DNA of 64,000 bases from Gammaproteobacteria bacterium (GTDB taxonomy: Bacteria > Pseudomonadota > Gammaproteobacteria > Ga0077536), in the NCBI GenBank assembly GCA_040220855.1, contig JAVJVZ010000023.1, positions 22,102 to 86,101 of the forward strand, read 5' to 3'. Below are positions 9,381-46,516 of the stretch, in pieces. The translations under genes and the position numbers were made by a program. The number at the start of each line of letters is the position of its first letter. Position 1 is the first letter of the stretch. The notes beneath the pieces are model-generated. The model made no database searches, had not been told where the DNA came from, and saw only the letters and a program-made list of their open reading frames with translations.

Positions 9381-9593
9381 ATGCGCCTGTCCCGTAATGG
9401 CTATTACGTCGAACGTTACGTCAAGTGCGACAATTGTGGCGTGCTGATCTACGACGACGGCATGGCAGCGACGATCGCGGGTGACGACGGCCTGTACTGC
9501 TCCCAGTGGTGTATCGACTGGGCGACGGCGCGCGCCCGCGGCATCGAGGAGCCGCGCATACCGCTACCGCGCGTGCCACGCGAGCGCGGCTGA
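9381..9593 (+). CDS. Small hypothetical protein with a 4-Cys zinc-ribbon-like motif
   Basis: 70 aa, CDNCG ... CSQWC. Plausible RBS. Confidence 0.4.
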   Translation: MRLSRNGYYVERYVKCDNCGVLIYDDGMAATIAGDDGLYCSQWCIDWATARARGIEEPRIPLPRVPRERG

Positions 9594-9609
9594 CGACGCC
9601 GGGCACGGT

Positions 9610-10934: not shown

Positions 10935-11023
10935 ACGACCTCCTGCAGTGGCGATGGTCGGAGCATGGATGACACCCTAGATCGACGCCATCAATCGCTC
11001 AAGCAAAATTAATCTGGAATTCA

Positions 11024-11042
11024 TATCGACACCATCGATATA
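11024..11042. promoter_or_regulatory. Palindromic operator ATATCGA-N5-TCGATAT in an AT-rich divergent promoter region
   Basis: Perfect 7-bp inverted arms. Same core as the site at 11152-11166. Confidence 0.4.
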
Positions 11043-11151
11043 AAAAACCGGACTCACAGGCTGCAGCGAGCCTCGCGCGCCTGCACGATCTGACCAGGCA
11101 TGCTTTTCGGCGCAGTTGATATCATCAAAAAGAATGAAAAAATCACTTAAT

Positions 11152-11166
11152 ATCGAATCTTTCGAT
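11152..11166. promoter_or_regulatory. LysR-type T-N11-A box (ATCGA-N5-TCGAT), about 27 bp upstream of the LysR start
   Basis: Palindrome ATCGAATCTTTCGAT fits the T-N11-A architecture and its position is typical for LTTR autoregulation. Confidence 0.45.
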
Positions 11167-11192
11167 GCATAATGGGCTCACGCACGACGCGA

Positions 11193-12080
11193 ATGGATAC
11201 CGAACTCGCCCGTACCTTTCTCACCGTCATCGAGCGCGGCAGCTTCGTGCGAGCCGCCGAGCATCTCCATCTCACGCAGTCGTCGGTCAGTGCGCGCATC
11301 GCCGCGCTCGAGCGCGAACTCGGTTGCCGCCTGTTCGTGCGCAACCGCGCCGGTATCCGCCTCACGACGGAGGGGCACCGCTTCCAGCGTCATGCGGCGG
11401 CACTCGTGCGTGCGCTCGAGAACGCGCGCCAGGCCCTCGGCGTCGCGCGCGCCTACCCCGAGGAACTCGTCGTCGGCGCGCGCTTCGGCTTGTGGGACGG
11501 CTTCATGCTCGAATGGCTCGCGGCGTTACGCAGCCACGCTCCCGCAGTCGCCGTGCGCGCCGAGGTCGGCTTCGAGGACACCCTCATGCAGGCCCTGATC
11601 GAGGGTCGCCTCGACCTCGGCGTGATGTACACCCCGCAATACCGCCCGGGGCTGGTCGTCCAGCGCCTGTTCGAGGAGACACTGGTACTCGTCAGCACCG
11701 ACCCGCGCGACGATGCCCTCCCCGGTCGCGGTTATGTCTACGTCGACTGGGGCCCGGAATTCGGTCGCCAGCACCAGGCCGATTTCCCCGACTACGCGGG
11801 CGCTGCGATCACGGTCAACATCGGCTGGCTCGGCCTGCGCCACATCCTCGCCAAGGGTGGCAGCGGCTACTTCCCACAGCGCCTCGTCGACCCGCATCTC
11901 GTCGCCGGCCGCCTCGGCCTGGTCGACGGTGCGCCGCGCTTTGCGCTACCCGCTTACGCCGTGCACGCCACGGCAGCCGCCGAGGAGCCGCCGCTGCGTG
12001 CCGCGCTCGCGTTGCTCGGCGCGCGCGCGGCACAGCACGTTCAACCCTCGATATCCTCGAACAGCACGCTCGACAGGTAG
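11193..12080 (+). CDS. LysR-family transcriptional regulator
   Basis: N-terminal HTH ([40 protein letters not shown]) and a C-terminal substrate-binding domain. Confidence 0.85.
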
Positions 12081-21700: not shown

Positions 21701-22459
21701 ATGAGCTCGCGCGAGCGCATCTTCGTTGTCACCTTCGGGCGCAGCGGCTCGTCGCTGCTGTGCGCGATTCTCGCCGATGCGGGCGCCGACTTCGGGGTTC
21801 CCGTGCCGGCGCAGTGGGACCCTCGCCACGGCGCCCTCGAGCACCGGGACATCAAGCGTGCGGCACACCATATGCGCCGCGCGTTCGACCTCGACCACGG
21901 CCGCCGCTTCCGCTTCTCGCCCGAACTCGAAGCGCGCTGGCGGCGACGCCGAGCACGCCACTGGCTCGCGCGTGCGCTGCCGCAGGCCGATGCCTTCAAG
22001 ATCGGCGACCTCGACCTGCTCGTGCAGATGAGCTTCGCGCTCGGCTATGCCCCCCGCGTGGTGCTCAACTACCGCGACTTCGAGCAGGCGCTCGCCAGCA
22101 CCCTGGTCGGACGCAAGCACGTCGGTCCCGACGCGCTCGCCGCCGAGTACGCACGCGTGTGCCGCCAGGGCCTCGCGCTGGTGCGCACCTTCGGCGGCTG
22201 CGTGGTCGGCTACGAAGACATGCTCGGCGATCCGGCCGGGGCCTGGCTGGACGCGCTCGCCGCGAGCACCGGCCTCGCAGCGGAGTCGCTGCGCGCGGCA
22301 GCCGCGCGGCGCATCACGGCCACCGAAGCGGCGCCGGCGGCAACCGGCATGCTCTATCCCGAGTGCAGGCGGCTGTACGACCTGCTGGCCGCACAGGCCG
22401 GGCGCGCCTTCCCGCCCAGTCGCACGGTGCTGCGAGCCCTCGACGCCCGCCGCGCCTGA
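21701..22459 (+). CDS. Sulfotransferase-family protein (putative)
   Basis: N-terminal P-loop-like FVVTFGRSGSS resembles the sulfotransferase 5'-PSB motif. Weak otherwise. Confidence 0.45.
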   Translation: MSSRERIFVVTFGRSGSSLLCAILADAGADFGVPVPAQWDPRHGALEHRDIKRAAHHMRRAFDLDHGRRFRFSPELEARWRRRRARHWLARALPQADAFKIGDLDLLVQMSFALGYAPRVVLNYRDFEQALASTLVGRKHVGPDALAAEYARVCRQGLALVRTFGGCVVGYEDMLGDPAGAWLDALAASTGLAAESLRAAAARRITATEAAPAATGMLYPECRRLYDLLAAQAGRAFPPSRTVLRALDARRA

Positions 22460-22634
22460 GCGCGCATCCGTGCGACGGCGGCGAGGCCGCACCGCGGCGG
22501 CGGGGCGCGGGCAGCACCCACCGTCGCACGACCCCGTTTGCGTGTCGCGGTGCCGCGGCTCAGCCGCGTCGCGTTGGCCCGACTCGCGCAATGCCACGCG
22601 TCGGCCGACCACGAGACAACGAGCAATTGCGAAT

Positions 22635-22670
22635 TATATAAACGCAAATGATAATGCGTCGCGTTTATAT
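22635..22670. promoter_or_regulatory. Fur-box-like palindromic element upstream of the TonB-dependent receptor
   Basis: ATAAACGCAAATGATAATGCGTCGCGTTTAT contains an AATGATAAT core inside an 8-bp inverted repeat, in an AT-rich patch of a 70% GC genome. Confidence 0.45.
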
Positions 22671-22672
22671 TC

Positions 22673-25345
22673 TTGCGATTTCCGATGCCCGTGCCGCCAG
22701 CTCCCCGCACCCGTGCACCGCGCCGGCCGACGCTCGGCCCGCGCCGCCCGCGGGCACACCGTCTCGCCGCCATCACCGCCCTTGGTGTGTGGCTCATGGC
22801 GGCCTCCGGCATGGACGCCACGATGGCGGCCGATCGCCTCGATGGCCATGGTGACGGCGAGGCCGTCGACGCCGCGGGCAGGGCGGCGCCGGCACCGGCC
22901 GCGGCAGGCGATGACGACGGTAATAGCGACGCCAACGACGACGGCCGCGATGGCGCTCGCGGCGACAGCGCGCAGCGTCACGCCCCCGGCACGCGCAAGG
23001 TCGAGGAAATCGTCGTCCGCGGGGTCCGGGAGAGCGCCTACGACCCGAACCTCGAACCGACCGATTCGGCCAACCTGCTGGATTTCGAAGATTTGCGCCG
23101 CACGCAATCGCCGGACGTCTTCGACGCCGTGCGCGACCTGCCCGGCGTGAGCGTCGAGGGCGGCCCGCGCACCAGCGGCAAGCGCTTCGCCATTCGCGGC
23201 TTCTCCGACAACGAGGACGTCCTCGTACGCATCGACGGCGTCACGCAGAATTTCGAGAAGTACCGCTACGGCGCCGGCGTCGACATCGAGCCCGAACTGC
23301 TCAAGCAGGTCGCCGTGCACCGCGGCGGCGCGGCCATCACGCAGGGCTCGGGTTACCTCGGCGGCGTGGTCGAGATGGAGACGGTCGACGCTGCCGACCT
23401 GCTCGCGCCCGGGCAGCGCCTCGGCGGGCAGGCCAGGCTCGGCTACCTCAGCAACAACGAGGGCAAGCTCTACTCGGGCAGCGCCTATGCCCGCCCCCTC
23501 GACTTCCTCGATGCGCTCGTCAACGTCACGCGGCGCGATTCGCGCGACTACGAGCTGCCGGACGGCAGCCGCTTCCCCGATTCCGCCGAGGCGCAGACGA
23601 GCGTCCTCGGCAAGCTCGAGCTGTCCTCGGACAGCGCGACCCTCGGTATCAGTCACCGTCGCGCCGAGCAGAGCGGCCAGCAGCCCTTCGACATCACCGG
23701 CGGCATCACGGGCATCGGCGGCCTCGTCCTGCGCGATACCTCGGAAGCGGCCACCGCGCTCCGCTTCGACTGGGACCCGGCCACCGAGTGGGTCGCGCTG
23801 GACGCCACCCTCGGCTTCATCGACAAGCAGGTGATCGATGCCAACAGCGCGATTGCCGGCGTCGACGACGCTGGCAATCCGGTCGGCACCGACCGCTTCG
23901 CCTACCAGATCTGGACCACCGGCATCGGCAACCGCGCGCGCTTCGGGCTCGGCCCGACCCGCCACGAGCTCGCTTTCGGGTGGCAGGGGAACCGCGAGCG
24001 CCGCGTCGCGACGCGCGATAACCTCGCAGGCAACGCGTTCAACCCTGCTCAACCTTCGGGCGAGAAGCGCAGCCACGGCGTCTATGCCCTGCACCGCGTG
24101 CGCTGGGGCGGCCTCACTGTCGAGGGTGGTCTGCGCCGCGACTGGTTCGACATCGCCGCCGGCCCCGCCGAGCGACGCGTGCTGAGCGCCCGCGGCGAAC
24201 CGGACAAGGTGTCCTACGCGCTCGATTCACCGGTCTTCTCGATCGCCTTCGCGCACGGCCCGGCGGAGGTCTTCTACCATTGGGGCGAGAGCTTCCGCGT
24301 GCCGCTCCTGGACGAGCTGTTCCAGCGCGGCAACTTCAGCGCCTGCGTCGAGTTCACCGCATTTGCCCGGGCGCCCACGGCGCCGGTCTTTCCCGCCCTG
24401 CCACCGCAGCCGCAGGTCAGCTTTCCGCCCACGCCACAGCTCGCCGACTTCGGCTTCGACGCCGTGGCGTGGCTTGCCGCGCTCGATGCCTGGAACGCCG
24501 CCGTCGCGCAGGCGACCGCGACGCTGGCGGCCTGGGCCGAGGCCATCGCTGCCCTGCGCGCGGGCTACGACCGCGACCTCGACGCGTTCGAGGACGCGCT
24601 CGCCGCCTACCTCGACGACCCGAACGCGGATCGCAACGCGATGTGCGGCGACCGTTACCGCCCGGAGACCGCGACGACGCGCGAGGCCGGCTTCGTCCTC
24701 GACTTCGACAGCGTACTGCACGAAGCGGACGCGTTGTCGCTCAAGTTCACCTACTACGACATTCGCGTCGGCAATCTCATCGAGTCCATCTATGAAGACA
24801 GCGTGACCGGCGCCATCGGCCAGCCCGGCCGCGAGGTTCGCAAGGGCTTCGAGGTCGAGGCTCGCTACGACCAGCCCCGCTGGTACGCGCGCTTCGCGCT
24901 GACCACGCTCGACGGTTACATCAAGTACGGTTTTTTCGCGAACAATGTCGATCCCGATATCGCGCGCTTCACCGATCCGGGACGCTTCGAGCTGTTCAAC
25001 GTGCCAGCCGACAATTTCAACCTGACGCTCGCGGTGACGCCGCGTCACGATCTCGAAATAGGCCATCGCCTGCGCGTATTCGCGCCGCGCCTCGTCACCG
25101 TCGGCTTCGAACCCGGCTGCGTCGGCACGCTGTTCACCAACCCCGTGTGCAGCGTCTTCGGCGAGCAGCACGGCTACATGACGTCGAACTTCTTCCTGAG
25201 CTGGCGGCCGCACCCGTCGGTCGACCTGCGCCTGACCGTCGATAACGCCCTCAACAAGGAATTTCAGAATACCGGCTTCGGGGGCGCGCTCGGCGCCATC
25301 GCGCCGGGCCGGGACATCCGCGCCAGCGTGCTGCTGCGCTACTGA
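22673..25345 (+). CDS. TonB-dependent outer-membrane receptor (probable heme/iron-complex receptor)
   Basis: Plug-domain TonB-box-like EEIVVRGV, beta-barrel repeats, an FRVP (FRAP-like) motif. Adjacent to a hmuTUV operon. The true start may be an internal Met. Confidence 0.85.
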   Translation: MRFPMPVPPAPRTRAPRRPTLGPRRPRAHRLAAITALGVWLMAASGMDATMAADRLDGHGDGEAVDAAGRAAPAPAAAGDDDGNSDANDDGRDGARGDSAQRHAPGTRKVEEIVVRGVRESAYDPNLEPTDSANLLDFEDLRRTQSPDVFDAVRDLPGVSVEGGPRTSGKRFAIRGFSDNEDVLVRIDGVTQNFEKYRYGAGVDIEPELLKQVAVHRGGAAITQGSGYLGGVVEMETVDAADLLAPGQRLGGQARLGYLSNNEGKLYSGSAYARPLDFLDALVNVTRRDSRDYELPDGSRFPDSAEAQTSVLGKLELSSDSATLGISHRRAEQSGQQPFDITGGITGIGGLVLRDTSEAATALRFDWDPATEWVALDATLGFIDKQVIDANSAIAGVDDAGNPVGTDRFAYQIWTTGIGNRARFGLGPTRHELAFGWQGNRERRVATRDNLAGNAFNPAQPSGEKRSHGVYALHRVRWGGLTVEGGLRRDWFDIAAGPAERRVLSARGEPDKVSYALDSPVFSIAFAHGPAEVFYHWGESFRVPLLDELFQRGNFSACVEFTAFARAPTAPVFPALPPQPQVSFPPTPQLADFGFDAVAWLAALDAWNAAVAQATATLAAWAEAIAALRAGYDRDLDAFEDALAAYLDDPNADRNAMCGDRYRPETATTREAGFVLDFDSVLHEADALSLKFTYYDIRVGNLIESIYEDSVTGAIGQPGREVRKGFEVEARYDQPRWYARFALTTLDGYIKYGFFANNVDPDIARFTDPGRFELFNVPADNFNLTLAVTPRHDLEIGHRLRVFAPRLVTVGFEPGCVGTLFTNPVCSVFGEQHGYMTSNFFLSWRPHPSVDLRLTVDNALNKEFQNTGFGGALGAIAPGRDIRASVLLRY

Positions 25346-25392
25346 GGACGTGCGGGCGTGCAGGCGGCGCGTCCGCGCGTCGCGTCATCGAA

Positions 25393-26211
25393 TCAACCGC
25401 GTCGGCGCGCGCGCCGGAGCAGCATGCCTGCACTGGCGACGAGCAGCCAGCCGGCCGGCAGCGGCACCGGCTGCGTGCTGCCGGTACCGCCGCTGCCGCC
25501 CGGGCCACCGGCCACCGCCTGCGGACCGATGTCGACGGCGACCGCGTCGAGGCTCAGGCTGGTGTCGGCAGCCGCGAAGGCGAACGCGTAGGTGCCGAGC
25601 GCGACCGGCAGCTCCCACAGGTACAGGTATTCGTTGTCGACGCCGGTGCCGCCGTCGGTCCCGCCCGGGGCGCTGGAATTTCCCGTCGCGAGTGTCACGC
25701 GCTGCGACCACGCGGCGCCGTTCAGCCTGACGCTCGCGTGGTCGATATCGGCGCCGAGTGCAGAGACCTGCAGTGCCGCGGTGATCGGCCGCACGCCAAG
25801 CGCCGTGTGCGCGCTCGCCGGACTCACGACCAGCTGGAAGGCGAGCTCGTCGTTGAAGCTGTAGATGTTCCCGCTACCGGTGATGAAGGCGGCGGGTTGC
25901 GCGGTGGAACCCTTCTTGCCCGTAACGAGAATGCTGCCATTGTTGGCGGCGAGACCGAGCGCGCCGCGGTCCGGCGTGCTGTCCGGCAGGACCGGCGCGA
26001 CCCCGATGTCGGGCTCGTTACGAAAGCGGTCGTAATGGACGTATGCGCTGCCAGCGCTGCCGCGCGTCCAGTCCCCCCACGCCGCGGTGGCCGGATCCTG
26101 GAACGCGACCGCTGCTGCGTCGACACTCGTATGGAAGAGCGCGCCGAGCGCGGCGCAGGCGAACAGGGAAACAGGTCGGAACACGGTACTTCTCCTCGAC
26201 AACGGACCCAT
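25393..26211 (-). CDS. Secreted hypothetical protein with a C-terminal VPLPA-CTERM (PEP-CTERM-like) sorting signal
   Basis: Signal peptide. The C-terminus ...VPLPAGWLLVASAGMLLRRARRRG is motif + TM helix + Arg cluster. Paralog of 31222..31959 (shared WGDWTRG.AG..Y..DF and NIYSFN/NLYNFG blocks). The N-terminal 173 codons of ORF 25393..26730 were rejected as an extension. Confidence 0.7.
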   Translation of the reverse strand: MGPLSRRSTVFRPVSLFACAALGALFHTSVDAAAVAFQDPATAAWGDWTRGSAGSAYVHYDRFRNEPDIGVAPVLPDSTPDRGALGLAANNGSILVTGKKGSTAQPAAFITGSGNIYSFNDELAFQLVVSPASAHTALGVRPITAALQVSALGADIDHASVRLNGAAWSQRVTLATGNSSAPGGTDGGTGVDNEYLYLWELPVALGTYAFAFAAADTSLSLDAVAVDIGPQAVAGGPGGSGGTGSTQPVPLPAGWLLVASAGMLLRRARRRG

Positions 26212-26237
26212 GAGCGGGCGGCGAACTGAGTGTAAGT

Positions 26238-26290
26238 AAGAATGATTCGTACTACTAGTATTCTTTTTCGTGATTGCGCACAATTGCGCG
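26238..26290. promoter_or_regulatory. AT-rich divergent promoter with inverted repeat AAGAAT-N16-ATTCTT and tandem ATTGCG half-sites (candidate Fur/iron operator)
   Basis: aagaatgattcgtactactagtattctt ... gattgcgcacaattgcgcg lies between the VPLPA protein (-) and the hutZ-like gene (+). Confidence 0.35.
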
Positions 26291-26334
26291 GGCGCCGCGC
26301 CGGCGCCCCGACCCCCATCGACCAGGAGCCGACG

Positions 26335-26862
26335 ATGAACGCACCGACCACCCCGCTCGAGGACGTTGCCCGCGAGGCGCGCGGATTTCGCGATAGCTTT
26401 CGCACCCTCCATCTCGCGACCGCCGGCGCCGACGGCACGCCGAGTGCGAGCTATGCGCCTTTCGCGCTGTCGAGCGATGACCGGTTCCAGGTCTACGTCA
26501 GCGAGCTGGCCGCCCACACCGCGAACCTTTTGCGCGGCACACCGGTGAGTGTGCTGATCATCGAGTCCGAGCATGACGCCGCGCACCTCTTCGCCCGCAA
26601 GCGCCTGACGTTCACCTGCGCCCCGCAGCACTGTCCGCGCGGCAGCGATGCGTTCGAAGCGGTGCTCGCCGGTCTCGAAGAACGCTTCGGCGAGTTCATG
26701 GGCTACCTCCGTACCCTCACCGACTTCCATGCGTTCACGCTAGAAGCGCGCCACGCGACCTACGTGCGCGGCTTCGCCCAGGCTTACGAGTTCCCGGACG
26801 GTCGCCTCGAGACCATTCGTCACGTCAACGACCGCGGCCACGCCGCCGACGACGAGAACTGA
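26335..26862 (+). CDS. Heme-utilization protein HutZ-like (pyridoxamine 5'-phosphate oxidase split-barrel family)
   Basis: 176 aa, PNPOx-like fold pattern. Position as first gene of the hmuTUV operon. AGGAG RBS. Confidence 0.7.
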   Translation: MNAPTTPLEDVAREARGFRDSFRTLHLATAGADGTPSASYAPFALSSDDRFQVYVSELAAHTANLLRGTPVSVLIIESEHDAAHLFARKRLTFTCAPQHCPRGSDAFEAVLAGLEERFGEFMGYLRTLTDFHAFTLEARHATYVRGFAQAYEFPDGRLETIRHVNDRGHAADDEN

Positions 26863-26866
26863 GCCG

Positions 26867-27721
26867 ATGCGCCTGCGTCTTCTGTCCACCGCCGGTCTCG
26901 CGCTCGCGCTCGCGCTCGGACTGCTCGCACCGCTGGCAACCGCCGCCGAGCGCATCGTCGCCGTCGGCGGCGCGGTGACGGAGATCGTCTTCGCGCTCGG
27001 CGCCGGTGACCGCCTCGTCGCCGTCGATACGACCAGCCGCTTTCCCGACGCGGCCACGCGCCTGCCGGACGTCGGCTACCTGCGCACGCTGTCGGCCGAA
27101 CCCATCCTCGCCTTGCGGCCCGACCTCGTGCTGCATGCCGCGGATGCCGGTCCACCCGAGGCGCTCGCGCAGCTCCGCGCAGCCGGTGTGCCGCTCGTCG
27201 CCATCCCGGATGCGCCGAGCGCGGCGGGTGTCGAGGACAAGATTCGCGCCACCGCCGAGGCGCTCGGTCAGGCCGACGCGGCAACCGGGCTGATCGCGCG
27301 CCTGCATCGCGAGCTTGCCGCCGCGCGCGCGGCGATCGACGCCGGCGCCACGCCGCCCAGGGTGGTGTTCGCCATGCAGTTCGACGCCGGATCGGTGCTC
27401 GCGGCCGGCCGCGAGACCGCGGCAGACGCCATCATCCGGCTCGCCGGCGGCCGCAACGTCGCCGGTGACTTCACGAGCTATAAGCCGATCGGCGCCGAAG
27501 GTCTCCTCGTCGCTCGCCCCGACGTCGTGGTCACCGTCGACCGCGCGGTGGCACAGTTCGCTCGCCCGGCCGATGCTCTCGCACTGCCGGCGCTGCGCCT
27601 GACCCCGGCCGCCGCGACCGGGCGCATCGTCGTCATGGATCCCCTGTTGCTGCTCGGTTTCGGGCCGCGTCTCGGCGAGGCAGTGACGACGCTCGCCGGC
27701 GCGCTGCACGCGGTGCCGTGA
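26867..27721 (+). CDS. hmuT: Hemin ABC transporter periplasmic substrate-binding protein (HmuT/ChuT-like)
   Basis: Signal peptide, class III (FecB-like) SBP architecture. Start is 5 nt after the hutZ stop. Confidence 0.8.
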   Translation: MRLRLLSTAGLALALALGLLAPLATAAERIVAVGGAVTEIVFALGAGDRLVAVDTTSRFPDAATRLPDVGYLRTLSAEPILALRPDLVLHAADAGPPEALAQLRAAGVPLVAIPDAPSAAGVEDKIRATAEALGQADAATGLIARLHRELAAARAAIDAGATPPRVVFAMQFDAGSVLAAGRETAADAIIRLAGGRNVAGDFTSYKPIGAEGLLVARPDVVVTVDRAVAQFARPADALALPALRLTPAAATGRIVVMDPLLLLGFGPRLGEAVTTLAGALHAVP

Positions 27722-27764
27722 GCGACGCAGGTCGCCCACCGCGCCGCCGCGCCCGCACGGCCCG

Positions 27765-28892
27765 ATGACACCCGCCGACGATCACCTCCTCGCCGCGGGT
27801 GCGCCCGCCGCCGCCGCGATACGGGCGCGGTACCTCGCGCTACCCACCCGCCGCATGCTCGTGCTCGCTGCCTGTTTCGCCTGCGCGCTCGCCGCGATAC
27901 TCGCCAACCTTGCGCTCGGTCCCGTCGTGGTGCCGCTCGCGAGCGTGCTGCGCATCCTGACCGGCACGCACGAGGCCGTCGGCGCGGACGGCGGCGTCGC
28001 CGCGAGCGTGGTGCTCGACCTGCGCGCGCCGCGCGTGGTGCAGGGACTGCTCGTCGGCGCCGCGCTCGCGGTCTCCGGGGCAGCCTTCCAGGGCCTGTTC
28101 CGCAACCCGCTCGCCGATCCCAGCCTCGTCGGCATCTCGGCCGGGGCCGCGACAGGCGCGGTCGGCTACATCGTGCTCGGCAGTGCGCTCGGCAGTGCGT
28201 TCGCGCCGCTCGCCGCGATCCCGCGCATGGCCGCGCTGCCGCTCGCGGCGATCGGCGGGGCGCTCGCCGCCGCGGCAGCGCTCTACCGGCTGGGCCGCCG
28301 CGGCAGCGACCTCGACATCGCGACCCTGCTGCTCGCGGGCATCGCCATCACCGCGCTATGCCTGTCTGCCTCGGGCCTGCTCATCTTCGTCAGCGACGAC
28401 GAGCAGCTGCGCGAGCTGAACTTCTGGTCCCTCGGCTCGCTCGCCCGCGCGCACTGGCCGGTGCTGTTGCCGGCACTGCCCTGGCTGCTCGGCGCAACCG
28501 CCTGGCTGGTGGCACGCGCCGGCGTTCTGAACGCACTCGCCCTCGGCGAAGCCGAGGCCTGGCACCTCGGCTACCGCGTAGAGCGGGTCAAGCTCGAGGT
28601 CGTCGCGCTGACCGCGACCGCGGTCGGCACCGCAGTCGCCATCGCCGGCGTGATCGGATTCATCGGTCTCATCGTGCCGCACCTGCTGCGGCTCGCGATC
28701 GGCGCAGACAACCGCTACGTCCTGGCGGGCGCCGCCGCGCTCGGCGGCGCGCTGCTGCTGGTGGCCGACCTGCTCGCACGCACGCTGGTAGTACCGGCGG
28801 AACTCCCGATCGGCATCCTGACCAGCCTGCTCGGCGGACCGTTCTTCCTGTGGCTCATGCAACGCCAGCGCTGCGCGCCCGCACTGCCGTGA
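27765..28892 (+). CDS. hmuU: Iron/hemin ABC transporter permease (FecCD family, HmuU-like)
   Basis: About 10 TM helices and FecCD conserved segments (LALGEAEAWHLGY..., TSLLGGPFFLWLM). Confidence 0.85.
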   Translation: MTPADDHLLAAGAPAAAAIRARYLALPTRRMLVLAACFACALAAILANLALGPVVVPLASVLRILTGTHEAVGADGGVAASVVLDLRAPRVVQGLLVGAALAVSGAAFQGLFRNPLADPSLVGISAGAATGAVGYIVLGSALGSAFAPLAAIPRMAALPLAAIGGALAAAAALYRLGRRGSDLDIATLLLAGIAITALCLSASGLLIFVSDDEQLRELNFWSLGSLARAHWPVLLPALPWLLGATAWLVARAGVLNALALGEAEAWHLGYRVERVKLEVVALTATAVGTAVAIAGVIGFIGLIVPHLLRLAIGADNRYVLAGAAALGGALLLVADLLARTLVVPAELPIGILTSLLGGPFFLWLMQRQRCAPALP

Positions 28893-29686
28893 TCGCGACC
28901 CACGCCCTCGGCTACGACGTCGCTGGCCGCGCGCTGCTCGCGGACTGCGAGCTCGCCTTCACGGGCGGCCGCGTGACCGCGGTCCTCGGCCCCAACGGCG
29001 CCGGCAAGTCGACCCTGCTGCGCCTGCTGACGGGTGAGCGGCGTCCGAGCCACGGCGAGGTGCGCGTCGACGGGCGCGCCCTGGACACCTGGACACCCGC
29101 AGCGCTCGCGCGGGTGCGGGCAGTCGTCACCCAGTTCAACCACGTCGCGTTCCCGTTCACGGCCGCCGAGATTGTTGCGCTCGGTCGCGCCCCGTGGCGG
29201 CGCAGCGATACGCGCGCCGCCCGCGCGGCGGCCGTCGAGGCCGCGCTCGCGCGGCTCGAGGTCGGGCATCTCGCGGGGCGTCTCTACCCGACCCTGTCCG
29301 GCGGCGAGCAGCAGCGGGTGGCCATCGCGCGCGCGCTCGCCCAGCTCGACTGGCCACGGGCCGGCGGCGCGCGCTGCCTGCTGCTCGACGAGCCGAGCGC
29401 GAGCCTCGACCTGCATCACCAGCACGCGCTCATGGCGTTGCTGCGCGAGCTCGCGACACAGGGCGTGACGGTGGTGGTCGTCCTGCACGACCTGAACCTG
29501 GCGCTCGGCTATTGCGACGAGGTGGTATTACTGCGCGAGGGCCGCGTCGCCGCCACCGGCGCCACCGCCGCCACCCTCACCCCGGCGCTCGTCGAGGCCG
29601 TCTACCGCGTCGCCGCCGAACAGTTCGAAACCCCCGACGGTGGCGTCTTTCTCGTCGCCCGTCGCGCCGTGGAGTACGCCGCATGA
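28889..29686 (+). CDS. hmuV: Hemin ABC transporter ATP-binding protein (HmuV-like)
   Basis: Walker A GPNGAGKST, ABC signature LSGGEQQRV, Walker B LLLDEP. GTG start overlapping the hmuU stop (GTGA). Confidence 0.85.
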   Translation: MIATHALGYDVAGRALLADCELAFTGGRVTAVLGPNGAGKSTLLRLLTGERRPSHGEVRVDGRALDTWTPAALARVRAVVTQFNHVAFPFTAAEIVALGRAPWRRSDTRAARAAAVEAALARLEVGHLAGRLYPTLSGGEQQRVAIARALAQLDWPRAGGARCLLLDEPSASLDLHHQHALMALLRELATQGVTVVVVLHDLNLALGYCDEVVLLREGRVAATGATAATLTPALVEAVYRVAAEQFETPDGGVFLVARRAVEYAA

Positions 29687-30330
29687 ATCCCGATCCGCAC
29701 ACGACCGCACGCCGCCTGCTGCTCGGCAGCGCGTCGGCCCGCTTTACCGCCGTTGCGCGCGGCAGCGCCGCGTCGACGCCTTTCTGCCTCGCGCCCGACG
29801 GCACGCCCCTGCTCGAGGCGACTGCCGGTGCCGCCGTCAGCATCGCGCTCGGCGCCGCGGGCGACACATTCGCACTCGTCCTGCGCGGACGGGCCATCCC
29901 GCTCGCCGCGGCCGAGGACGCGAGTCTCGCGCGCTGGCGGCGACACCATCCGGCGCATGCGCGCCCGCCCGTGCGCCTCGCCGAGCCGCATGCCCTGCTG
30001 TGCGCCGCGGGCGGGCAGCATGCGCTGGACTACTTTGCGCTGGTGCGTGATGCGCTGTTCGACTGGGCTAGCGAGACGCGCATGGTCGAGCACATGAACG
30101 ACGATCACCTCGACGCGCTGCGCGATTACTGCGCACACGCCGGGGTCTCCTGCACACGCGTGGCGCCGCTGATGGCCGGCGTCGACGTCGACGGCTTCTT
30201 CGTGCTTGCCGACGAGGGGGCGGCTCGCTTCGATTTCCCGGCGCCCTGCCCCAGCCCGCTCGCGGTGCGCAAGGCGCTCGTCGCCCTCGCGCAGGCGGCG
30301 CGCGCAGCTGAGCGCGCAGACGGCGATTGA
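29683..30330 (+). CDS. DUF2470-domain heme-utilization-associated protein (HugZ N-domain-like)
   Basis: MNDDHLDALRDY motif typical of DUF2470. ATG overlaps the hmuV stop (ATGA). Confidence 0.6.
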   Translation: MNPDPHTTARRLLLGSASARFTAVARGSAASTPFCLAPDGTPLLEATAGAAVSIALGAAGDTFALVLRGRAIPLAAAEDASLARWRRHHPAHARPPVRLAEPHALLCAAGGQHALDYFALVRDALFDWASETRMVEHMNDDHLDALRDYCAHAGVSCTRVAPLMAGVDVDGFFVLADEGAARFDFPAPCPSPLAVRKALVALAQAARAAERADGD

Positions 30331-30332
30331 GT

Positions 30333-31040
30333 TCAGCGCCCGGCGGTGAGGAAGACGGGTTCGCGTGCTGGCCGCCCGCTCGCGGGATCGTAGTGGCAGC
30401 GCGCACAGATGGCCGGCGCAGGCAGCGCTGCGGGCTGTCGCGCGGTGCCGAAATCGGCGCTCGCGGCGAGCCGACCCGCGTCGTCGTACACGAAGAAGTC
30501 GACCGCCGTCGAGGTCGGCGCCCGCCGCCGCACGATCTCGGTTTCGCGCACGCTACCGTCCGGATTGAGCGTTTCGGCAACCGACATGCGCCACTGCCGA
30601 CCCGGATTGCGGTAGATGCGCCGCGGCAGGTGCTTGGCCCGGCTCGGCGAGAGGAGTTCGCTCGACCATTCACGGTAGCCGCTGGCCGCGGCGAACGCGG
30701 ACAGTGAGTCCGGCAGCACGCGGGCGGCGGCCCGCGCCACCAGGGCGGCCGCAGCATCGGCCGTGCGCGGCGCATGGCGCAGGCGACGCAGCACGCGGGC
30801 GGCTGCGCGCCGCTCGCCGGAGAGCAGCGCGAGCGTGCCCGGCGCGAGCCGTCCACCAGCGCGCACCGCCGCGTCCCCGAACAGAAACCCGAGCCAGTGC
30901 ACGCTGCAGTCGACCGCGTAGCGGCCGCCGGCCACGGCCCCTTCGCGCGGCACGAGCAGCCACCCCCGCGGCGCCTGCAACAGCACGGCGGCGAGCAGGA
31001 TGGCCGCGAGCATGCTTGCACGGTGTGCGGACAGACGCAT
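30333..31040 (-). CDS. Hypothetical secreted protein with a single C-terminal CxxCH motif (possible heme-binding protein)
   Basis: Signal peptide MRLSAHRASMLAAILLAAVLLQAP, then ...AICARCHYDPASG near the C-terminus. The N-terminal 142 codons of ORF 30333..31466 were rejected as an extension. Confidence 0.45.
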   Translation of the reverse strand: MRLSAHRASMLAAILLAAVLLQAPRGWLLVPREGAVAGGRYAVDCSVHWLGFLFGDAAVRAGGRLAPGTLALLSGERRAAARVLRRLRHAPRTADAAAALVARAAARVLPDSLSAFAAASGYREWSSELLSPSRAKHLPRRIYRNPGRQWRMSVAETLNPDGSVRETEIVRRRAPTSTAVDFFVYDDAGRLAASADFGTARQPAALPAPAICARCHYDPASGRPAREPVFLTAGR

Positions 31041-31221
31041 ACAGCTCACCGTCCCCGGGCCGCGTTCGTTCACGGGCGCCCCGCGCACGTGCGGGGCGGA
31101 GGTACGGCACCGCACCCGGGAACGCCGCCGCTGCCACCGGCGCGTCCGACTCCCGGGGGTGCCGCAGAAGGGAGCGGCAGCGGCAGGAAGGCGCCGCGAA
31201 CCCGCGTCCGGGCGCTGAACG

Positions 31222-31959
31222 TCACGACGAGCTCGCGCCCCGGACAGCGCTATGGCGCCGCGCCAGGAGACCGGCGAGCACCGGCGCGCACAGCCACGCC
31301 GCGCCGGGCAGGGGAACCGGCGCGATGTCGACTGCCGCCTGCGCGAAGGACATGTGCGGGCCGCCCTGCAAGACGAACTCGTAGCTCGCGGCGGGTGCGT
31401 CGAGCGTCCACAGGAACAGCACCTGCTCGAGCAGCACGGTGCCGAACGCCGAGGCGAACGCGGCATCCTGGAAGGTCACCACCTTGCTGTCCCATTGGGC
31501 GCCGTTGAGCGTCACCGGGGCCACGGCGTTACCGGCGTCGTCGGCTTCCAGCGGGGTGCCCCAGGTCTCGGTCTGCAGCGCGACGACGACCGGACCGTCC
31601 AGCGGACCGGCGCTGCCGTCGACCGCGATGGTCAGCACCTGCAGGCTGCCGAAGTTGTAGAGATTGCCGGTGGTGCCGGTCACGAACGTGCCGGCATTCC
31701 AGCCGAAGCTGGCCGCCGGCGTGCCGGCGCTGCCGACGTCCGGCGCCACGGGATTGGCCGCACCGAAGTCGTCCCATTCGGCGTAGAGGGTGCCAGCGTC
31801 GCCGCGCGTCCAGCCACCCCAGTCGGCGCTGTCCGGGGTTGCGAAGCCGAAACCGGGTGCATACGGATCGGGGCCGTTGGCGAAATCGGCCAGCGCCAGC
31901 GGGCTGGTCAACAGCATCACGGCGCCAGCGACGGCGGAAATGGTTTGCTTGTTCTTCAT
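31222..31959 (-). CDS. Secreted hypothetical protein with a C-terminal VPLPA-CTERM-like (PEP-CTERM family) sorting signal
   Basis: Signal peptide MKNKQTISAVAGAVMLLTSPLALA. C-terminus VPLPGAAWLCAPVLAGLLARRHS. Paralog of 25393..26211. Confidence 0.7.
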   Translation of the reverse strand: MKNKQTISAVAGAVMLLTSPLALADFANGPDPYAPGFGFATPDSADWGGWTRGDAGTLYAEWDDFGAANPVAPDVGSAGTPAASFGWNAGTFVTGTTGNLYNFGSLQVLTIAVDGSAGPLDGPVVVALQTETWGTPLEADDAGNAVAPVTLNGAQWDSKVVTFQDAAFASAFGTVLLEQVLFLWTLDAPAASYEFVLQGGPHMSFAQAAVDIAPVPLPGAAWLCAPVLAGLLARRHSAVRGASSS

Positions 31960-32029
31960 CTCGAGTCACCCTCCTCAGGCGTGGTTGGCGCTTGCGGCGA
32001 CGGCAATTCCGGGCCGCTGAACGCGGAGT

Positions 32030-32048
32030 GACTCTAAACGATAATTAT
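32030..32048. promoter_or_regulatory. Fur-box-like 19-mer GATAATTATTCTTATTAGC upstream of the second VPLPA-CTERM gene
   Basis: About 13/19 match to the GATAATGATAATCATTATC consensus. Lies in an AT-rich patch immediately upstream of the gene start. Confidence 0.35.
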
Positions 32049-32158
32049 TCTTATTAGCAACTATGAGAAATGCGAGGTATTTCCGTGCGCGCCCGCCGGC
32101 CCCGCCCGGCCAGTCCACACGTCCGACCACCCGGGCCCGGGCCGCGCAAGCCGGCCGC

Positions 32159-33301
32159 TCACTGCAGATAGTTGCCGATCACCTCGCGCAGCCATGCCCG
32201 CGTCGCGGCTGCGTCGTAGGGCGTGCCATCGGCGTAGCTCGCCGCCCGCGCAAAGAGCCGCGCGAACAGCGGCTGACCATCGACACGTGCGGCAAGCGCA
32301 AACTCCGCGCGCGCCGCGAGGAGCTCGGCCCAGGTCGCGCGGACGTCGGCCCAGAATGGCGCCGTCGCCGCCCAGTACGCGTCGCCGGCCGAGAAATCCT
32401 GCCCGCTGACGTGCTCGTAGCGGTTCAGGCCACGTTCCTCGGCGAGCGGTGTGCCGTCGCTCGGATCACCCGCACGGTGGCGCAGCTTGCGATTGTGCTG
32501 CTCGTGCACCCAGCCCGTCGGCTGCACCACCAGGCGGTGGGTACCGAAGAGGCGGTCGTAATCGTCGCGCACGCTGAACTCGCGCCGCGGCAGCGGCCGC
32601 CCCATCGGCTCGCTGGTCCAGGTGGCGTCGCTCGCGCGATGCTGCCAGCGGCCGCGCGCGGCATAACGTGGCGCATCGTCGACCTGGTAGACGGTCTGCG
32701 TCCAGGTGCCCGCGACGGCCTCCTCGATGATTTCGCGCCAACGCCCGTCGCCACCGTAGGCGAGGCGCGTGGGGGCTTCGTAACGCCAGTCCTGCCGCCA
32801 GTGTTTCATGACGACGGGTTCGGGTTCGCCGGCGACGAACATCACCAGCAGGTGCTGCAGGCTGACGAAGCCCGGTTCGTCCGTGAGCACGTAGATGACT
32901 TCCGTGCCCCACGACCGGTAAGGGCGCGCCGGCTCGAAACCCGGGCTGAAGCCGAGCGTCTCGATGAACTCGAAGCTCGCACGGTACTCGCCGGCCAGGG
33001 CGCGAATGGCCAGGCGATCGCGTGCCTCGCCACGCGCTTCGGTCTCCTGCAGGGCCTGCCAGGCGGCGCCCGGCGTCGTCGCCAGCGTCACCGGCGCGCC
33101 GCGCGTCGTGCCCCCGCGCGGCGTCAGCGCACACCGTTCGCCAAGCATCCAGGAAAACACGTACGGTGGGCGCTCACAGGTCTCGGCTGTGGGCGTCGCG
33201 CCTGCGTACGGCGCGAGCAGCGCAAATGCGACGACCACCGCCGCGCAGAGCGGCGTCGTCAGGCCGGGGTGACGGGTAAAGCGGATTCGCTCGGTGCGCA
33301 T
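32159..33301 (-). CDS. Hypothetical secreted protein (380 aa)
   Basis: Signal peptide after MRTERIRF. No recognisable family. Fur-box-like element in its promoter. Confidence 0.5.
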   Translation of the reverse strand: MRTERIRFTRHPGLTTPLCAAVVVAFALLAPYAGATPTAETCERPPYVFSWMLGERCALTPRGGTTRGAPVTLATTPGAAWQALQETEARGEARDRLAIRALAGEYRASFEFIETLGFSPGFEPARPYRSWGTEVIYVLTDEPGFVSLQHLLVMFVAGEPEPVVMKHWRQDWRYEAPTRLAYGGDGRWREIIEEAVAGTWTQTVYQVDDAPRYAARGRWQHRASDATWTSEPMGRPLPRREFSVRDDYDRLFGTHRLVVQPTGWVHEQHNRKLRHRAGDPSDGTPLAEERGLNRYEHVSGQDFSAGDAYWAATAPFWADVRATWAELLAARAEFALAARVDGQPLFARLFARAASYADGTPYDAAATRAWLREVIGNYLQ

Positions 33302-33398
33302 TGGACATCTCCAGGAAATACGGGGTGCAGCTTCACGACAGCGTGGCACGGTGTTCCGTGCCGGCATACGCGGCGGCTGTCGGAATGGACTGGGCTAC

Positions 33399-33429
33399 TT
33401 ATTGCGAATGATTATCGATTGCAATAATC
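33399..33429. promoter_or_regulatory. Fur-box-like palindrome TTATTGCGAATGATTATCGATTGCAATAA in a divergent promoter
   Basis: 7-bp inverted arms (TTATTGC/GCAATAA) around an AATGATTAT core. Shares ATTGCGAAT-N-ATTAT with the site at 22625-22645. Confidence 0.45.
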
Positions 33430-33460
33430 TCCAGGCGCCACCACAAACGGAAGCCCTCTC

Positions 33461-33880
33461 ATGAAACTGGTCTACCACCGCCACCTTCCGCTCGATCAGT
33501 CGCTGCGCTGCGCTCGGCCGCAACGTCGGCTGCCGCCGCACGACCCGGCCGACCGCGTGCTGCTGGCCGAGTTCGACGACGGCCGCGGCGGCGGGCCGCT
33601 GTCGCGCTGGGAAGTGCGCGCGTTCGACCCCGCCGGCCAGTTCCACGCCTGGTTCGCCCCGCGCGGTTTCGTTCATCTGCAACTGTGGCAACCCTGGTTC
33701 GGGATATCGGTGCTGACGCCCTCGCGGCTCACCCTGGACCGCTTCGAAGCGTACCCGCTCGACGGCTGGAAGCGCGGTACGCCGGATTACGCGACCCTCG
33801 TCCGCCTGCTCGAGGCCGCCTACGCGGTCCGCCTGCCCGACGCCGCCCGCGTCGCCGGTTGGCGCGCGGTGCTCGATTGA
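33461..33880 (+). CDS. Hypothetical protein (139 aa)
   Basis: ATG with a GGAAG RBS. No family recognised. Downstream of the Fur-like box. Confidence 0.45.
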   Translation: MKLVYHRHLPLDQSLRCARPQRRLPPHDPADRVLLAEFDDGRGGGPLSRWEVRAFDPAGQFHAWFAPRGFVHLQLWQPWFGISVLTPSRLTLDRFEAYPLDGWKRGTPDYATLVRLLEAAYAVRLPDAARVAGWRAVLD

Positions 33881-33944
33881 GCGCGGCGCGGGCGTGCGTG
33901 TGTGCGCCGCAGACCGCAGCCAGCAACGCGTCACCTCGGACGCC

Positions 33945-34283
33945 TCAGGGGGACGCCGTGGCGCTGAAGGTGTAGCTGCGCTCGACGCGCGCCACGCGCA
34001 CCGCGTAGCCGGCATACCAGTGCGCGCGCCCGCGTTGCTGGGCTGCGCGGTGCTCGGCGTGGCGCTTCCAGGCCAGGATCGAGGCCTCGTCGCGCCAGTA
34101 GGAAACGACGATCTCGCCGCTCGCCTCGACCGCCGCCTCGACGCCGAGGAAACCCGGCATGTCGGCGACGAGTTCGAGCATGCGTGCCACCGTCTCGCCG
34201 TAGTCGCGCGTGTCCGCGCCCGGCGTCGCGGTGAAGATCACGGCGTAATAGGGCGCCTCGAGGCCCTCGAGCACGGCTGGCAT
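33945..34283 (-). CDS. Antibiotic-biosynthesis-monooxygenase (ABM) domain protein
   Basis: 112 aa ferredoxin-like ABM pattern (YYAVIFT...EIVVSYWRDEASILAWKRHAEH). Confidence 0.65.
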   Translation of the reverse strand: MPAVLEGLEAPYYAVIFTATPGADTRDYGETVARMLELVADMPGFLGVEAAVEASGEIVVSYWRDEASILAWKRHAEHRAAQQRGRAHWYAGYAVRVARVERSYTFSATASP

Positions 34284-34423
34284 GACGTTCTCCGCAGGAT
34301 CTTTGCTGGAGCTTAGCGCGCGCTACCCACGCTGCCCAGGCCGCGTGGAACCTCGCGGCGGGCCCGATGGGCTGCGCGCGTCCGCGCGCGCTACACTGCA
34401 TGCTCCCCGGTCGGAGCAAAGCA

Positions 34424-35206
34424 ATGACGCGCATCCTCACCGCCCTCGTCGTCCTCGTCGCCGGTCACACCGCCACGGCACAGCAATCCGCCGTCGACGT
34501 GTGGGAGACGCTGCTGCGTCCACACCACTTTCCGGAGGTCGAAATCATCGAGGACGGCAGCGTCATCGAACTCTCCACGCCTTACCGTTCCGAGGACGCC
34601 GCCTTCACCCCGGTACGCATCAAGGCGCGCATTCCGCAGACGCCGGAACGCTACATCGAAGCCATCCACCTGTTCGTCGACCTGAACCCCGAACCCAAGG
34701 TCGGCACCTTCACCTTCACCCCCGCGGCCGGCAGCGCCGACCTCGCATTGCGCATCCGCATCGACAAGTACACCGACGTGCGCGCGGTCGCGGTCCTCAA
34801 TACCGGCGAGCACTACATGGCGAAGAGCTACGTCAAGGCCCAGGGCGGCTGCGCGATCCCGGTCGCCATCGACTACAAGCAGGCGATGTCCGGCCTCGGG
34901 AAGGTTCAGCTGCGCACCCTCGACGGTGACGACGCGGACGGCATCGCGACCCAGTTGCGCGTCCGTCATCCGAACTTCACCGGCATGCAGATGGACTACA
35001 AGATCTACGCGGTGCGGCCGGCGCACTACGTCAACTCGATCCGCGTATTGCTGAACGGCGAGCCGGTGATGACGGCCGAGACGGGCATCTCGATTAGCGA
35101 GGATCCGAGCTTCCGCTTCTTCCTCGCGCCGCAGGCGAGTGGCGAATTGAGCGCGGAGATCACCGACACCAAGGGCAACAGCTGGACCGAGAAGCTGACG
35201 CTCTGA
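34424..35206 (+). CDS. SoxY/SoxZ-like fused sulfur-carrier protein (quinoprotein-dehydrogenase-associated SoxYZ-like carrier family)
   Basis: Signal peptide. SoxY-like N-half with a KAQGGCAIP carrier-cysteine loop, and a SoxZ-like C-half (SEDPSFRFFL). Confidence 0.55.
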   Translation: MTRILTALVVLVAGHTATAQQSAVDVWETLLRPHHFPEVEIIEDGSVIELSTPYRSEDAAFTPVRIKARIPQTPERYIEAIHLFVDLNPEPKVGTFTFTPAAGSADLALRIRIDKYTDVRAVAVLNTGEHYMAKSYVKAQGGCAIPVAIDYKQAMSGLGKVQLRTLDGDDADGIATQLRVRHPNFTGMQMDYKIYAVRPAHYVNSIRVLLNGEPVMTAETGISISEDPSFRFFLAPQASGELSAEITDTKGNSWTEKLTL

Positions 35207-35216
35207 GCCGCGCTAC

Positions 35217-36185
35217 TCAGGCGCGCGTGACGTGCGGCGCGCGGAGCGCGGCAAGCGTTTCGTCGACCAGGCGCGTCACGATCTCGGCCGCCGGTGGCGC
35301 GTCGTGCAGCAGGTCCGCCGCTTCGCCGACGATCACCGGCGCGACATCGACGTCGCCGTCCTCGACCGCACGTTCGAAGGTGACGCGCTCGCTCGCTAGG
35401 CGCGCGGCGAACGCCGCCGGATCGGCGGCATACCTGCGCGTAGTCGCGTTGCGCAGTGTGCGGAGCGCGTAGCCGGGCGGCCACGCCCAGCCACGTAACA
35501 GGTCGAACACCGCGCCCTGCTCGGTGTCGTCCCCGCCCGCGGCGAGCGCGGCGCGGCGCGCGGCGGCGCTGGCGAGGCTCTCGGCACTCACGTAGAAGCG
35601 ACTGCCGAGCATGGCACCGTGCGCGCCGAGCACGAGGGCAGCGGCGATGCCGCGGCCGTCACCGATGCCGCCGGCGGCAACCACGGGGTGCGCCCCGGCG
35701 ACATCGACGATTGCCGGAACCAGCGGCAGGGTCGCGCGGCGTCCGCCATGTCCGCCCGCTTCGCCGCCCTGGGCGACGATGACATCGGCGCCGGCGTCGA
35801 GCGCGGCAAGCGCCTGCGTGAGCGTCTGAACCTGCGCGATCACGCGGACGCCGGCAGCATGCACGCGCGCCGCCCACGGGGCGACGTCACCGAAAGAGAG
35901 CAGTATCGCGGCCACGCCGTGCTCGAGCGCACGGTCGAGCAGCGCCGGGCACGCGGCCAACCGCCAGGTGATGAAGCCGACACCGATGCGCACGCCACCG
36001 GCCTGTGCGAGCTCGGCGCCAAGCCATTCCGGATCGCCGTAGCCGCCGCCGATCAGTCCGAGGCCGCCGGCGCGGCTGACGGCGGCCGCCAGCGCGCCGC
36101 CGGCAACACCGGCCATCGGTGCCGACAGCACCGGGTAGCGGATGCCGAGCAGCGTACACAGCGGGGTGGAGAGCACGGGCGCCAT
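35217..36185 (-). CDS. Nitronate monooxygenase (NMO / 2-nitropropane dioxygenase family)
   Basis: FMN TIM-barrel motifs (IRYPVLSAPMAGV, VIAQGGEAGGH). Start re-picked at MAPVLSTP. Confidence 0.8.
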   Translation of the reverse strand: MAPVLSTPLCTLLGIRYPVLSAPMAGVAGGALAAAVSRAGGLGLIGGGYGDPEWLGAELAQAGGVRIGVGFITWRLAACPALLDRALEHGVAAILLSFGDVAPWAARVHAAGVRVIAQVQTLTQALAALDAGADVIVAQGGEAGGHGGRRATLPLVPAIVDVAGAHPVVAAGGIGDGRGIAAALVLGAHGAMLGSRFYVSAESLASAAARRAALAAGGDDTEQGAVFDLLRGWAWPPGYALRTLRNATTRRYAADPAAFAARLASERVTFERAVEDGDVDVAPVIVGEAADLLHDAPPAAEIVTRLVDETLAALRAPHVTRA

Positions 36186-46230: not shown

Positions 46231-46516
46231 CGGACGTCTCCGTCGGAATCCCTGGGCGCTGAACGGCGCCGTGAGGTGCGCCCGGCATTGCTGCGGCACG
46301 CACGCACGGCGCCTCGTTTCCAGCATGATAGCGCGCCGCCGAAGACGATGAGCGATACCCGTGTTGTGTCGGGCGAGAGCAGCGGCGGTCCTGCATTGAC
46401 GAAAATCATTGCCATGTGGGCGCACCCCATCGATCATGCGGCCGCCCCGGCCGCGCGCCGGGCCGCCGCCCGCGCGCCCGGGCCGGCAGGATCTTTCGCC
46501 AGCGACCGGAGAGACC

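Follow-up and report, generated by a model that had tools for sequence, protein, structure and literature searches.

The 64-kb stretch of contig JAVJVZ010000023.1 analysed here (the window), from the genome assembly of an uncultured gammaproteobacterium (GCA_040220855.1), contains a heme-acquisition island in which four AT-rich patches, numbered here as sites 1 to 4, carry palindromic elements resembling the binding site of the repressor Fur. These patches, where the GC content of 100 nucleotides dips to 0.49-0.53 against 0.69 overall, are exactly the promoter-bearing intergenic regions of the island. Site 1 lies in front of a heme-type TonB receptor, site 2 between a first VPLPA-CTERM protein (paralog 1) and the hutZ-hmuTUV operon, site 3 in front of a second VPLPA-CTERM protein (paralog 2), and site 4 between the divergent genes of a DUF6607 protein and a protein of 139 amino acids (Table 1). 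Since the motif resembles a Fur box and is specific to the promoters of the island, an iron regulon is a reasonable reading, and it is fairly probable that the patches, taken as a whole, act as Fur operators. Repression by iron-loaded Fur (Fur-Fe2+) through promoter occlusion is quite likely at sites 3 and 4. As far as sequence can tell, Fur control is well supported for paralog 2 and the 139-amino-acid gene, and the case for the receptor and for the hutZ-hmuTUV operon is weak, though plausible.

The motif was searched by matching both strands of the window, at every position, to the Escherichia coli Fur 19-mer GATAATGATAATCATTATC. The three best matches correspond to site 3 (15/19) and site 4 (13/19, twice), followed by site 1 (12/19, tied with several matches in coding regions) and site 2 (11/19). 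A Fur matrix was additionally built from 32 distinct sites matching the consensus in at least 14 of 19 positions, all of them from loci of other genomes. The seven best matches of this matrix in the window (128 kb, both strands) fall without exception within the four patches. Across the window there are 19 AT-rich patches, defined by a GC content of at most 45% in 40 nucleotides, and only the four of the island reach 10 bits; the other 15, including the most AT-rich stretch of all (10972-11188), stay at or below 5.2 bits. When the patches were shuffled preserving their composition, the observed score was reached in 0 of 2000 shuffles for site 3 and for site 4, in 0.2% for site 2, and in about 1% for site 1. 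Taking a Fur box as a 19-bp inverted repeat that stands above background, sites 3 and 4 contain one, and sites 1 and 2 are borderline.

These results agree with a preliminary description of the sequence, which had pointed out four related AT-rich palindromic patches, named the genes behind them, and expected them to stand above background in a Fur scan. The strings it quoted are correct, except for three small errors in position or extension. The string of site 3, GATAATTATTCTTATTAGC, was placed at 32030-32048 and is located 10 nucleotides away, at 32040-32058; the palindrome of site 1, given as 22635-22670, spans 22638-22668; and of the word ATTGCGAAT-N-ATTAT, said to be shared by two sites, the 9-mer occurs exactly at 22626 and 33401 only, but the extension is found just at site 4, since site 1 reads ATTGCGAAT-T-ATATA. 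The 9-mer was also considered as an independent shared element and discarded, as it is explained by a -35-like TTGCGA that shares bases with the start of the box; tolerating one mismatch reveals no over-representation.

That the patches are just the ordinary sigma-70 promoters of a high-GC genome, and their likeness to Fur boxes an artefact of composition, is very improbable. It is true that all four patches are AT-rich, as the consensus is, and that the sites behind the matrix had been chosen with the E. coli consensus, so that the matrix scores depend in part on it. However, the remaining AT-rich patches of the window score low, no shuffle of sites 3 and 4 attains the score observed, and conservation in five orthologous promoters is base-specific. 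Homologues from genomes of 38-64% GC, in which AT-rich stretches are nothing special, are preceded by boxes too. The compositional explanation is largely refuted for sites 3 and 4. An RNA element in the patches has been rejected as well: a scan of 22000-34500 against Rfam (E<=1) returned only a spurious miRNA match, and no tRNA genes are present.

Site 3 holds a canonical box. On the gene strand, a TTGC(A/T)A hexamer overlaps bases 1-4 of the 19-bp box, which is followed by 3 nucleotides and a -10-like TAGAGT. The box would be embedded in the spacer of a predicted minus-strand promoter, with the -35 hexamer TTGCTA at 32060-32055 and the -10 hexamer TAGAGT at 32036-32031. This layout is the classical one of repression by promoter occlusion (PMC3050691). 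Paralog 2 has few homologues (n=38), and conservation was followed in five other genomes that encode one with 59-76% protein identity (L005, L037, L040, L041, and L039). All five hold an orthologous box, of 14.1-22.9 bits, at equal distance from the start codon. In the alignment of these promoters, the invariant columns are only those of the box and the -10 (TTGC.AAT....TTTAGA), the flanks having diverged. Paralog 2 and the open reading frame (ORF) of 226 amino acids behind it recur as a pair in L005, L040, and L041; a scan found no terminator-like site between them, and the two genes probably constitute one transcription unit.

At site 4, a single palindromic box fills the spacers of two putative mirror-image promoters and is common to both. 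The plus-strand promoter, facing the 139-amino-acid gene, would consist of TTGCGA (33402-33407) and TAATCT (33425-33430), and the minus-strand promoter, facing the DUF6607 gene, of TTGCAA (33424-33419) and TAAGTA (33401-33396), in both cases separated by 17 nucleotides. Sites 3 and 4 have in common that the box occupies the 17-18-nucleotide spacer between a TTGCnA and a TA..(G/C)T hexamer, although these hexamers (TTGCTA/TAGAGT, TTGCGA/TAATCT, and TTGCAA/TAAGTA) were read by eye and lie below the threshold of the promoter scan.

The 139-amino-acid protein belongs to a small family, with eight homologues, and a Fur-like box is located upstream of the homologue or of its operon in all four genomic contexts that were fetched. 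The closest of them (L049, 90% identity), where DUF6607 is the divergent neighbour as in the window, has a box of 11.2 bits. The box of L052 (50% identity) scores 17.8 bits and retains the layout of TTGCGA plus box, that of L051 (45% identity) scores 17.4 bits (15/19), and that of L050, at the head of an operon, 13.9 bits (14/19). In L051, the homologue adjoins genes for PNPOx, HemS/ChuX, and hmuTUV. The motifs invariant in the family are PPHDP..R, WEVR.F, H62, H72-QLW-P, S.LTPS.L, and E..P..GWK, and the predicted fold has no informative neighbour in the PDB.

The situation on the other side of site 4 is different. DUF6607 proteins have more than 3800 homologues, and no box is found upstream of the DUF6607 gene in the closest relative lacking the 139-amino-acid gene (L041), nor in the loci of Parahaliea (L042) and Lentisalinibacter (L043). 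Because these loci are boxless, the operator of site 4 seems to travel with the 139-amino-acid gene. Judging from these comparisons, DUF6607 has come under the shared divergent promoter as a passenger, and only in this lineage; its role as a general Fur target has been rejected. No paper mentioning DUF6607 was found in the literature. In Parahaliea aestuarii (L042, 2584-5149), the DUF6607 gene is located about 40 nucleotides behind the gene of the class II fumarase FumC. FumC is iron-regulated in Pseudomonas; around the FumC-DUF6607 pair of L042, no Fur-like box of at least 8 bits is found within 4 kb. In L041, DUF6607 adjoins the gene of an ABM-fold protein, which in the window flanks the island; the superfamily includes the IsdG-type heme-degrading monooxygenases. 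The gene's own upstream region in the window is without a Fur-like box.

Sites 1 and 2 hold half boxes. The left half of site 1 (GCAAATGATAAT) is perfect and contributes +11.4 bits, and its right half (GCGTCGC) is non-Fur, with -3.2 bits. The left half coincides with GATAAT, the -10 hexamer of the predicted receptor promoter, which is the sole match between 22000 and 35500 under a strict sigma-70 scan, so that the overlap of box and promoter has here the support of that scan; the box covers this -10 and the predicted transcription start. The same position is occupied by TTGTCA-N17-AATAAT in L037 and L044, where the orthologous 19-mers retain the shape of the box with 5.5 and 7.8 bits. Two candidates within this patch have been discarded. 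The 8-bp inverted repeat ATAAACGC/GCGTTTAT is rejected as a functional palindrome or hairpin, as its left arm is not kept in L037 and L044 and transcription is predicted to start only downstream of it; and CAATTGCG, common to sites 1 and 2, is not kept in the relatives and is treated as a chance resemblance.

In site 2, the right half (GAATCATTC) contributes +10.9 bits and the left half -2.0 bits. The block is retained in L005, L037, and L040, where the orthologues score 7.3-8.9 bits. Towards paralog 1, a putative -10-like hexamer (TACACT/TAGACT) is found 3 nucleotides past the box, with the same spacing as in site 3, suggesting that the promoters of paralogs 1 and 2 are themselves paralogous. 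On the opposite side, no promoter of hutZ was identified with the strict scan of 22000-35500, which matched the receptor promoter alone.

Binding of Fur to all four sites is a more doubtful matter, with a chance that falls a little short of even. In the main alternative, which is rather unlikely, sites 3 and 4 are the only Fur operators, and receptor and hutZ-hmuTUV operon would be constitutive or controlled by a heme-responsive or other regulator at conserved non-Fur blocks. The resemblance of sites 1 and 2 to Fur boxes would in that case follow from the AT-richness of -10 regions, such as the GATAAT that coincides with the Fur-like half of site 1. Besides the dependence of the matrix on the consensus and the boxless DUF6607 gene of L041, several observations weigh against an island-wide Fur regulon, and those on sites 1 and 2 favour this alternative. 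Both sites score about 10 bits with one half negative, and their orthologues only 5.5-8.9 bits, so the conservation of these blocks could reflect promoter elements or another factor, and it is chiefly prior expectation that speaks for Fur control of the receptor and hutZ-hmuTUV. Elements unrelated to Fur are moreover invariant beside them. The near-palindrome ATTGCGCACAAT (26273-26284), upstream of hutZ, is unlike the Fur matrix and invariant in the window, L005, L037, and L040, and may be the site of a second regulator or a promoter element. Just downstream of the receptor -10, the window, L037, and L044/L045 share without change GCGTCGCGTTTA (22656-22667), which lies outside the Fur consensus. 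Finally, a search with a Fur query sequence found no fur gene in the window or in the fetched loci.

On the other side, sites 2 and 1 score above their own shuffled versions (P 0.002 and about 0.01, respectively) and above all 15 AT-rich patches outside the island, and site 2 shares with site 3 the distance between box and -10. Heme receptors and hut/hmu operons are classically repressed by Fur, and experimentally validated Fur boxes can match the consensus as poorly as 10-11/19. The iron regulon that had been proposed across the island is therefore backed by good and conserved boxes at sites 3 and 4, but by a single Fur-like half at each of sites 1 and 2. The co-regulation proposed for the genes of unknown function fares similarly: conservation speaks for paralog 2 and the 139-amino-acid gene, but the case is weaker for paralog 1, and lineage-specific for DUF6607.

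A mechanism for the island-wide Fur regulon can be proposed from what is observed, namely the motif, how specific and conserved it is, and where it lies with respect to the genes. The four patches would be the core promoters of six transcription units, consisting of the receptor, paralog 1, hutZ-hmuTUV-DUF2470, paralog 2 with the 226-amino-acid ORF, DUF6607, and the 139-amino-acid gene. Each patch would contain an operator for the iron-loaded Fur repressor overlapping the -35/-10 region. In the presence of iron, Fur-Fe2+ would sit on the box and block the RNA polymerase; in its absence, Fur would leave the box and the genes would be transcribed. Tight binding is probable at the canonical sites 3 and 4, the latter serving two divergent promoters, and at sites 1 and 2 binding would probably be weak, or depend on cooperative spreading or a second factor.

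It is quite improbable that the regulator is instead another paralogue of the Fur family (of the Zur, Mur, or PerR type), or a repressor outside the family that recognises a comparable AT-rich palindrome. The operators of Fur-family regulators resemble one another, and the gene of the regulator was not found in the window; nevertheless, the targets are heme and iron-uptake genes, and the sites match best the Fe-Fur consensus. A Zur consensus string, and likewise those of IdeR/DtxR, Irr (ICE), and RirA (IRO), have no matches at the four patches. In addition, a like box is present in the homologous loci of nitrifiers, for which a regulator of the Fe-Fur type has been characterised (PMC3050691).

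The gene order of the island was established from frame-specific GC3 (GC content at third codon positions) and family searches in Pfam and NCBIfam, and is collected in Table 1 together with the boxes.

Table 1. Genes, predicted promoter, and Fur-like boxes of the heme island, in window coordinates; scores are those of the Fur matrix.
Feature	Coordinates	Strand	Score (bits)	Remarks
Receptor promoter	22627-22655	+		Predicted, sigma-70; TTGCGA-N17-GATAAT
Site 1 box	22644-22662	+	10.0	GCAAATGATAATGCGTCGC; half-canonical
Heme-type TonB receptor	22685-25345	+		Pfam plug and barrel domains
VPLPA-CTERM paralog 1	25393-26184	-		From translation; C-terminal VPLPAGWLLV...RRARRRG
Site 2 box pair	26232-26256			Degenerate
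Site 2, match at 26232	26232	+	10.0	
Site 2, match at 26238	26238	-	10.6	AGTAGTACGAATCATTCTT
hutZ-like, hmuT, hmuU, hmuV, DUF2470 operon	26335-30330	+		Heme degradation and ABC import; Pfam, NCBIfam
hutZ-like gene	26335-26862	+		
226-amino-acid ORF	30333-31013	-		Conserved; downstream of paralog 2
VPLPA-CTERM paralog 2	31222-31959	-		
Site 3, second match	32037	-	11.2	
Site 3 box	32040-32058	-	24.7	GCTAATAAGAATAATTATC; canonical, best match of the window
DUF6607 protein	32159-33301	-		PF20311, E 3e-66; N-terminal signal-like segment
Site 4, second match	33398	+	13.5	
Site 4 box	33404-33422	both	16.2	GCAATCGATAATCATTCGC; palindromic, score for the minus-strand match at 33404
139-amino-acid ORF	33461-33880	+		Small uncharacterised family; three invariant histidines
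ABM-fold protein	33945-34283	-		112 amino acids; flank of the island

The Fur-like boxes of the window sit upstream of heme-acquisition genes, namely those of the receptor, the HutZ-like protein, HmuTUV, and the DUF2470 protein. Judged by best family matches, the Hut/Hmu set is complete, with a receptor, a periplasmic binding protein, a permease, an ATPase, and a heme-degrading enzyme, although two of its members remain below the curated cut-offs. The best NCBIfam match of the receptor, TIGR01785 (TonB-hemin), scores 231 bits against a cut-off of 316.85, and the HutZ-like protein scores 141.8 bits for its best-matching family, whose cut-off is 225; HmuV exceeds that of NF010068 (297.7 against 261).

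Outside the island and outside the AT-rich patches, the next-best Fur-like match of the window is ATTGACGAAAATCATTGCC (46395-46413; 12/19, 9.6 bits), which ends at the ATG of a gene for a TauD/TfdA-family Fe(II)/2-oxoglutarate dioxygenase (46409-47356). Beside site 1, the island is bordered by a sulfotransferase-like gene (21701-22459). A homologue with 60% identity is encoded at 1-471 of L052, directly upstream of the Fur box and the homologue of the 139-amino-acid gene, and the sulfotransferase-like gene may delimit the island at a conserved edge, past which the cargo varies.

Both VPLPA-CTERM paralogs have an N-terminal signal peptide, a C-terminal VPLPA/VPLPG motif, a hydrophobic helix, and an Arg-rich tail, features also seen across the alignment of the family, and NCBI gives both the name VPLPA-CTERM protein. 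The two proteins share 33% identity, compared with 73% between paralog 1 and its orthologue in L005, and neither has a Pfam or NCBIfam match at E<=0.01. No residue of His, Cys, or Met is invariant in the family; Tyr59 and Tyr101 are near-invariant. The start of paralog 1 is likelier to be the GTG at 26184 than the upstream ATG at 26211, and has been revised to it because of a ribosome-binding site GAGGAG (26197-26192, minus strand), a clean signal peptide, and the agreement with the orthologues in L037 and L040, which begin straight after GAGGAG.

The genetic neighborhood of this family was surveyed with a profile search of one genome per species, which found 32 loci (L005-L036). A TonB receptor, hutZ/hmuTUV, or both are found by tblastn in the flanks of 27 of these 32 loci, whose hosts range from Methylococcales, Nitrosomonadales, and Hydrogenophilales, with their methanotrophs and nitrifiers, to Tepidisphaeraceae (Planctomycetes) and Verrucomicrobia. 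In 34 loci of the family, 35 clusters of matches to the consensus in at least 14 of 19 positions were counted, where shuffles would yield 4.1. The heme cluster of Methylomonas and Methylotuvimicrobium runs from the Fur box through a small ORF, (TonB-ExbB-ExbD), the heme receptor, the VPLPA family, HemS/ChuX, and HutZ to HmuTUV, and in the methanotrophs the Fur-like box stands ahead of the entire cluster. The VPLPA gene of Nitrosospira, Nitrosovibrio, Hydrogenophilales, and another gammaproteobacterial metagenome-assembled genome is the first of a two-gene unit with the heme receptor, and a box of 21-25 bits is located 200-350 nucleotides upstream. Four of the five adjacent receptors examined in homologous loci pass the curated cut-off of TIGR01786. 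Behind the VPLPA-receptor unit of Nitrosovibrio (L023), a protein of 600 amino acids with a CbiX (chelatase-like) domain is encoded at 9444-11246, which could be a candidate heme or iron-handling enzyme.

The presence of Fur boxes in front of heme-uptake genes is textbook knowledge, and the regulatory finding adds little by itself; as a known regulatory device in its usual place, it is of modest interest. Its value is that of a pointer to two uncharacterised families tied to iron-controlled heme acquisition, one of them widespread in heme-uptake loci. The best-conserved Fur-type operators of this lineage front two families without a Pfam or NCBIfam model or an informative structural neighbour, and the VPLPA family is wedged between the heme receptor and HemS/HutZ/HmuTUV, or heads the receptor operon, in several classes and phyla. 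In the literature, VPLPA-CTERM was found in one unrelated paper, and no paper was found that links PEP-CTERM with Fur boxes or heme. As a tentative proposal, with a chance of perhaps one in three, the VPLPA/PEP-CTERM beta-sandwich family may be an undescribed component of Fur-controlled heme acquisition, and the small His-rich 139-amino-acid family might be another. If so, the VPLPA protein, sorted to the cell surface by an exosortase, would capture heme or a heme source and pass it to the adjacent heme-type TonB receptor. The users of this route would be environmental bacteria, namely methanotrophs, ammonia oxidisers, Hydrogenophilales, Planctomycetes, and Verrucomicrobia. The proposal offers a hypothesis on heme scavenging by free-living environmental bacteria and suggests a role for one exosortase-sorted family, some of whose carriers are in culture (Methylotuvimicrobium, Methylomonas, and Nitrosospira).

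Fur boxes near the -10 and -35 elements of iron-uptake genes are well established, and the Nitrosomonas Fur box is about 80% similar to that of E. coli (PMC3050691); Fur repression of heme uptake is likewise established (PMC2851614). The island resembles the phu/has systems of Pseudomonas, hemPRSTUV of Yersinia, chuPRSTUV of Chromobacterium, and hut of Vibrio in three respects: a 19-bp inverted repeat, AT-rich and similar to the E. coli consensus, its predicted overlap with the -35/-10 region at the promoters of the receptor, the heme ABC importer, and the heme-degrading enzyme, and one box common to a divergent promoter pair. Contrary to those systems, here the strongest and best-conserved putative boxes front two uncharacterised genes, and the promoters of the receptor and hutZ have only half-canonical ones. 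The VPLPA proteins share with the PEP-CTERM/VPLPA-CTERM surface proteins sorted by exosortases the complete set of signal peptide, VPLPA/VPLPG motif, hydrophobic helix, and Arg-rich tail. With the hemophore HasA, HmuY, HxuA, and the NEAT proteins, they have in common the presence of a secreted or surface protein beside a heme-type TonB receptor and a Fur-type box, but they show no sequence or fold similarity to any of them.

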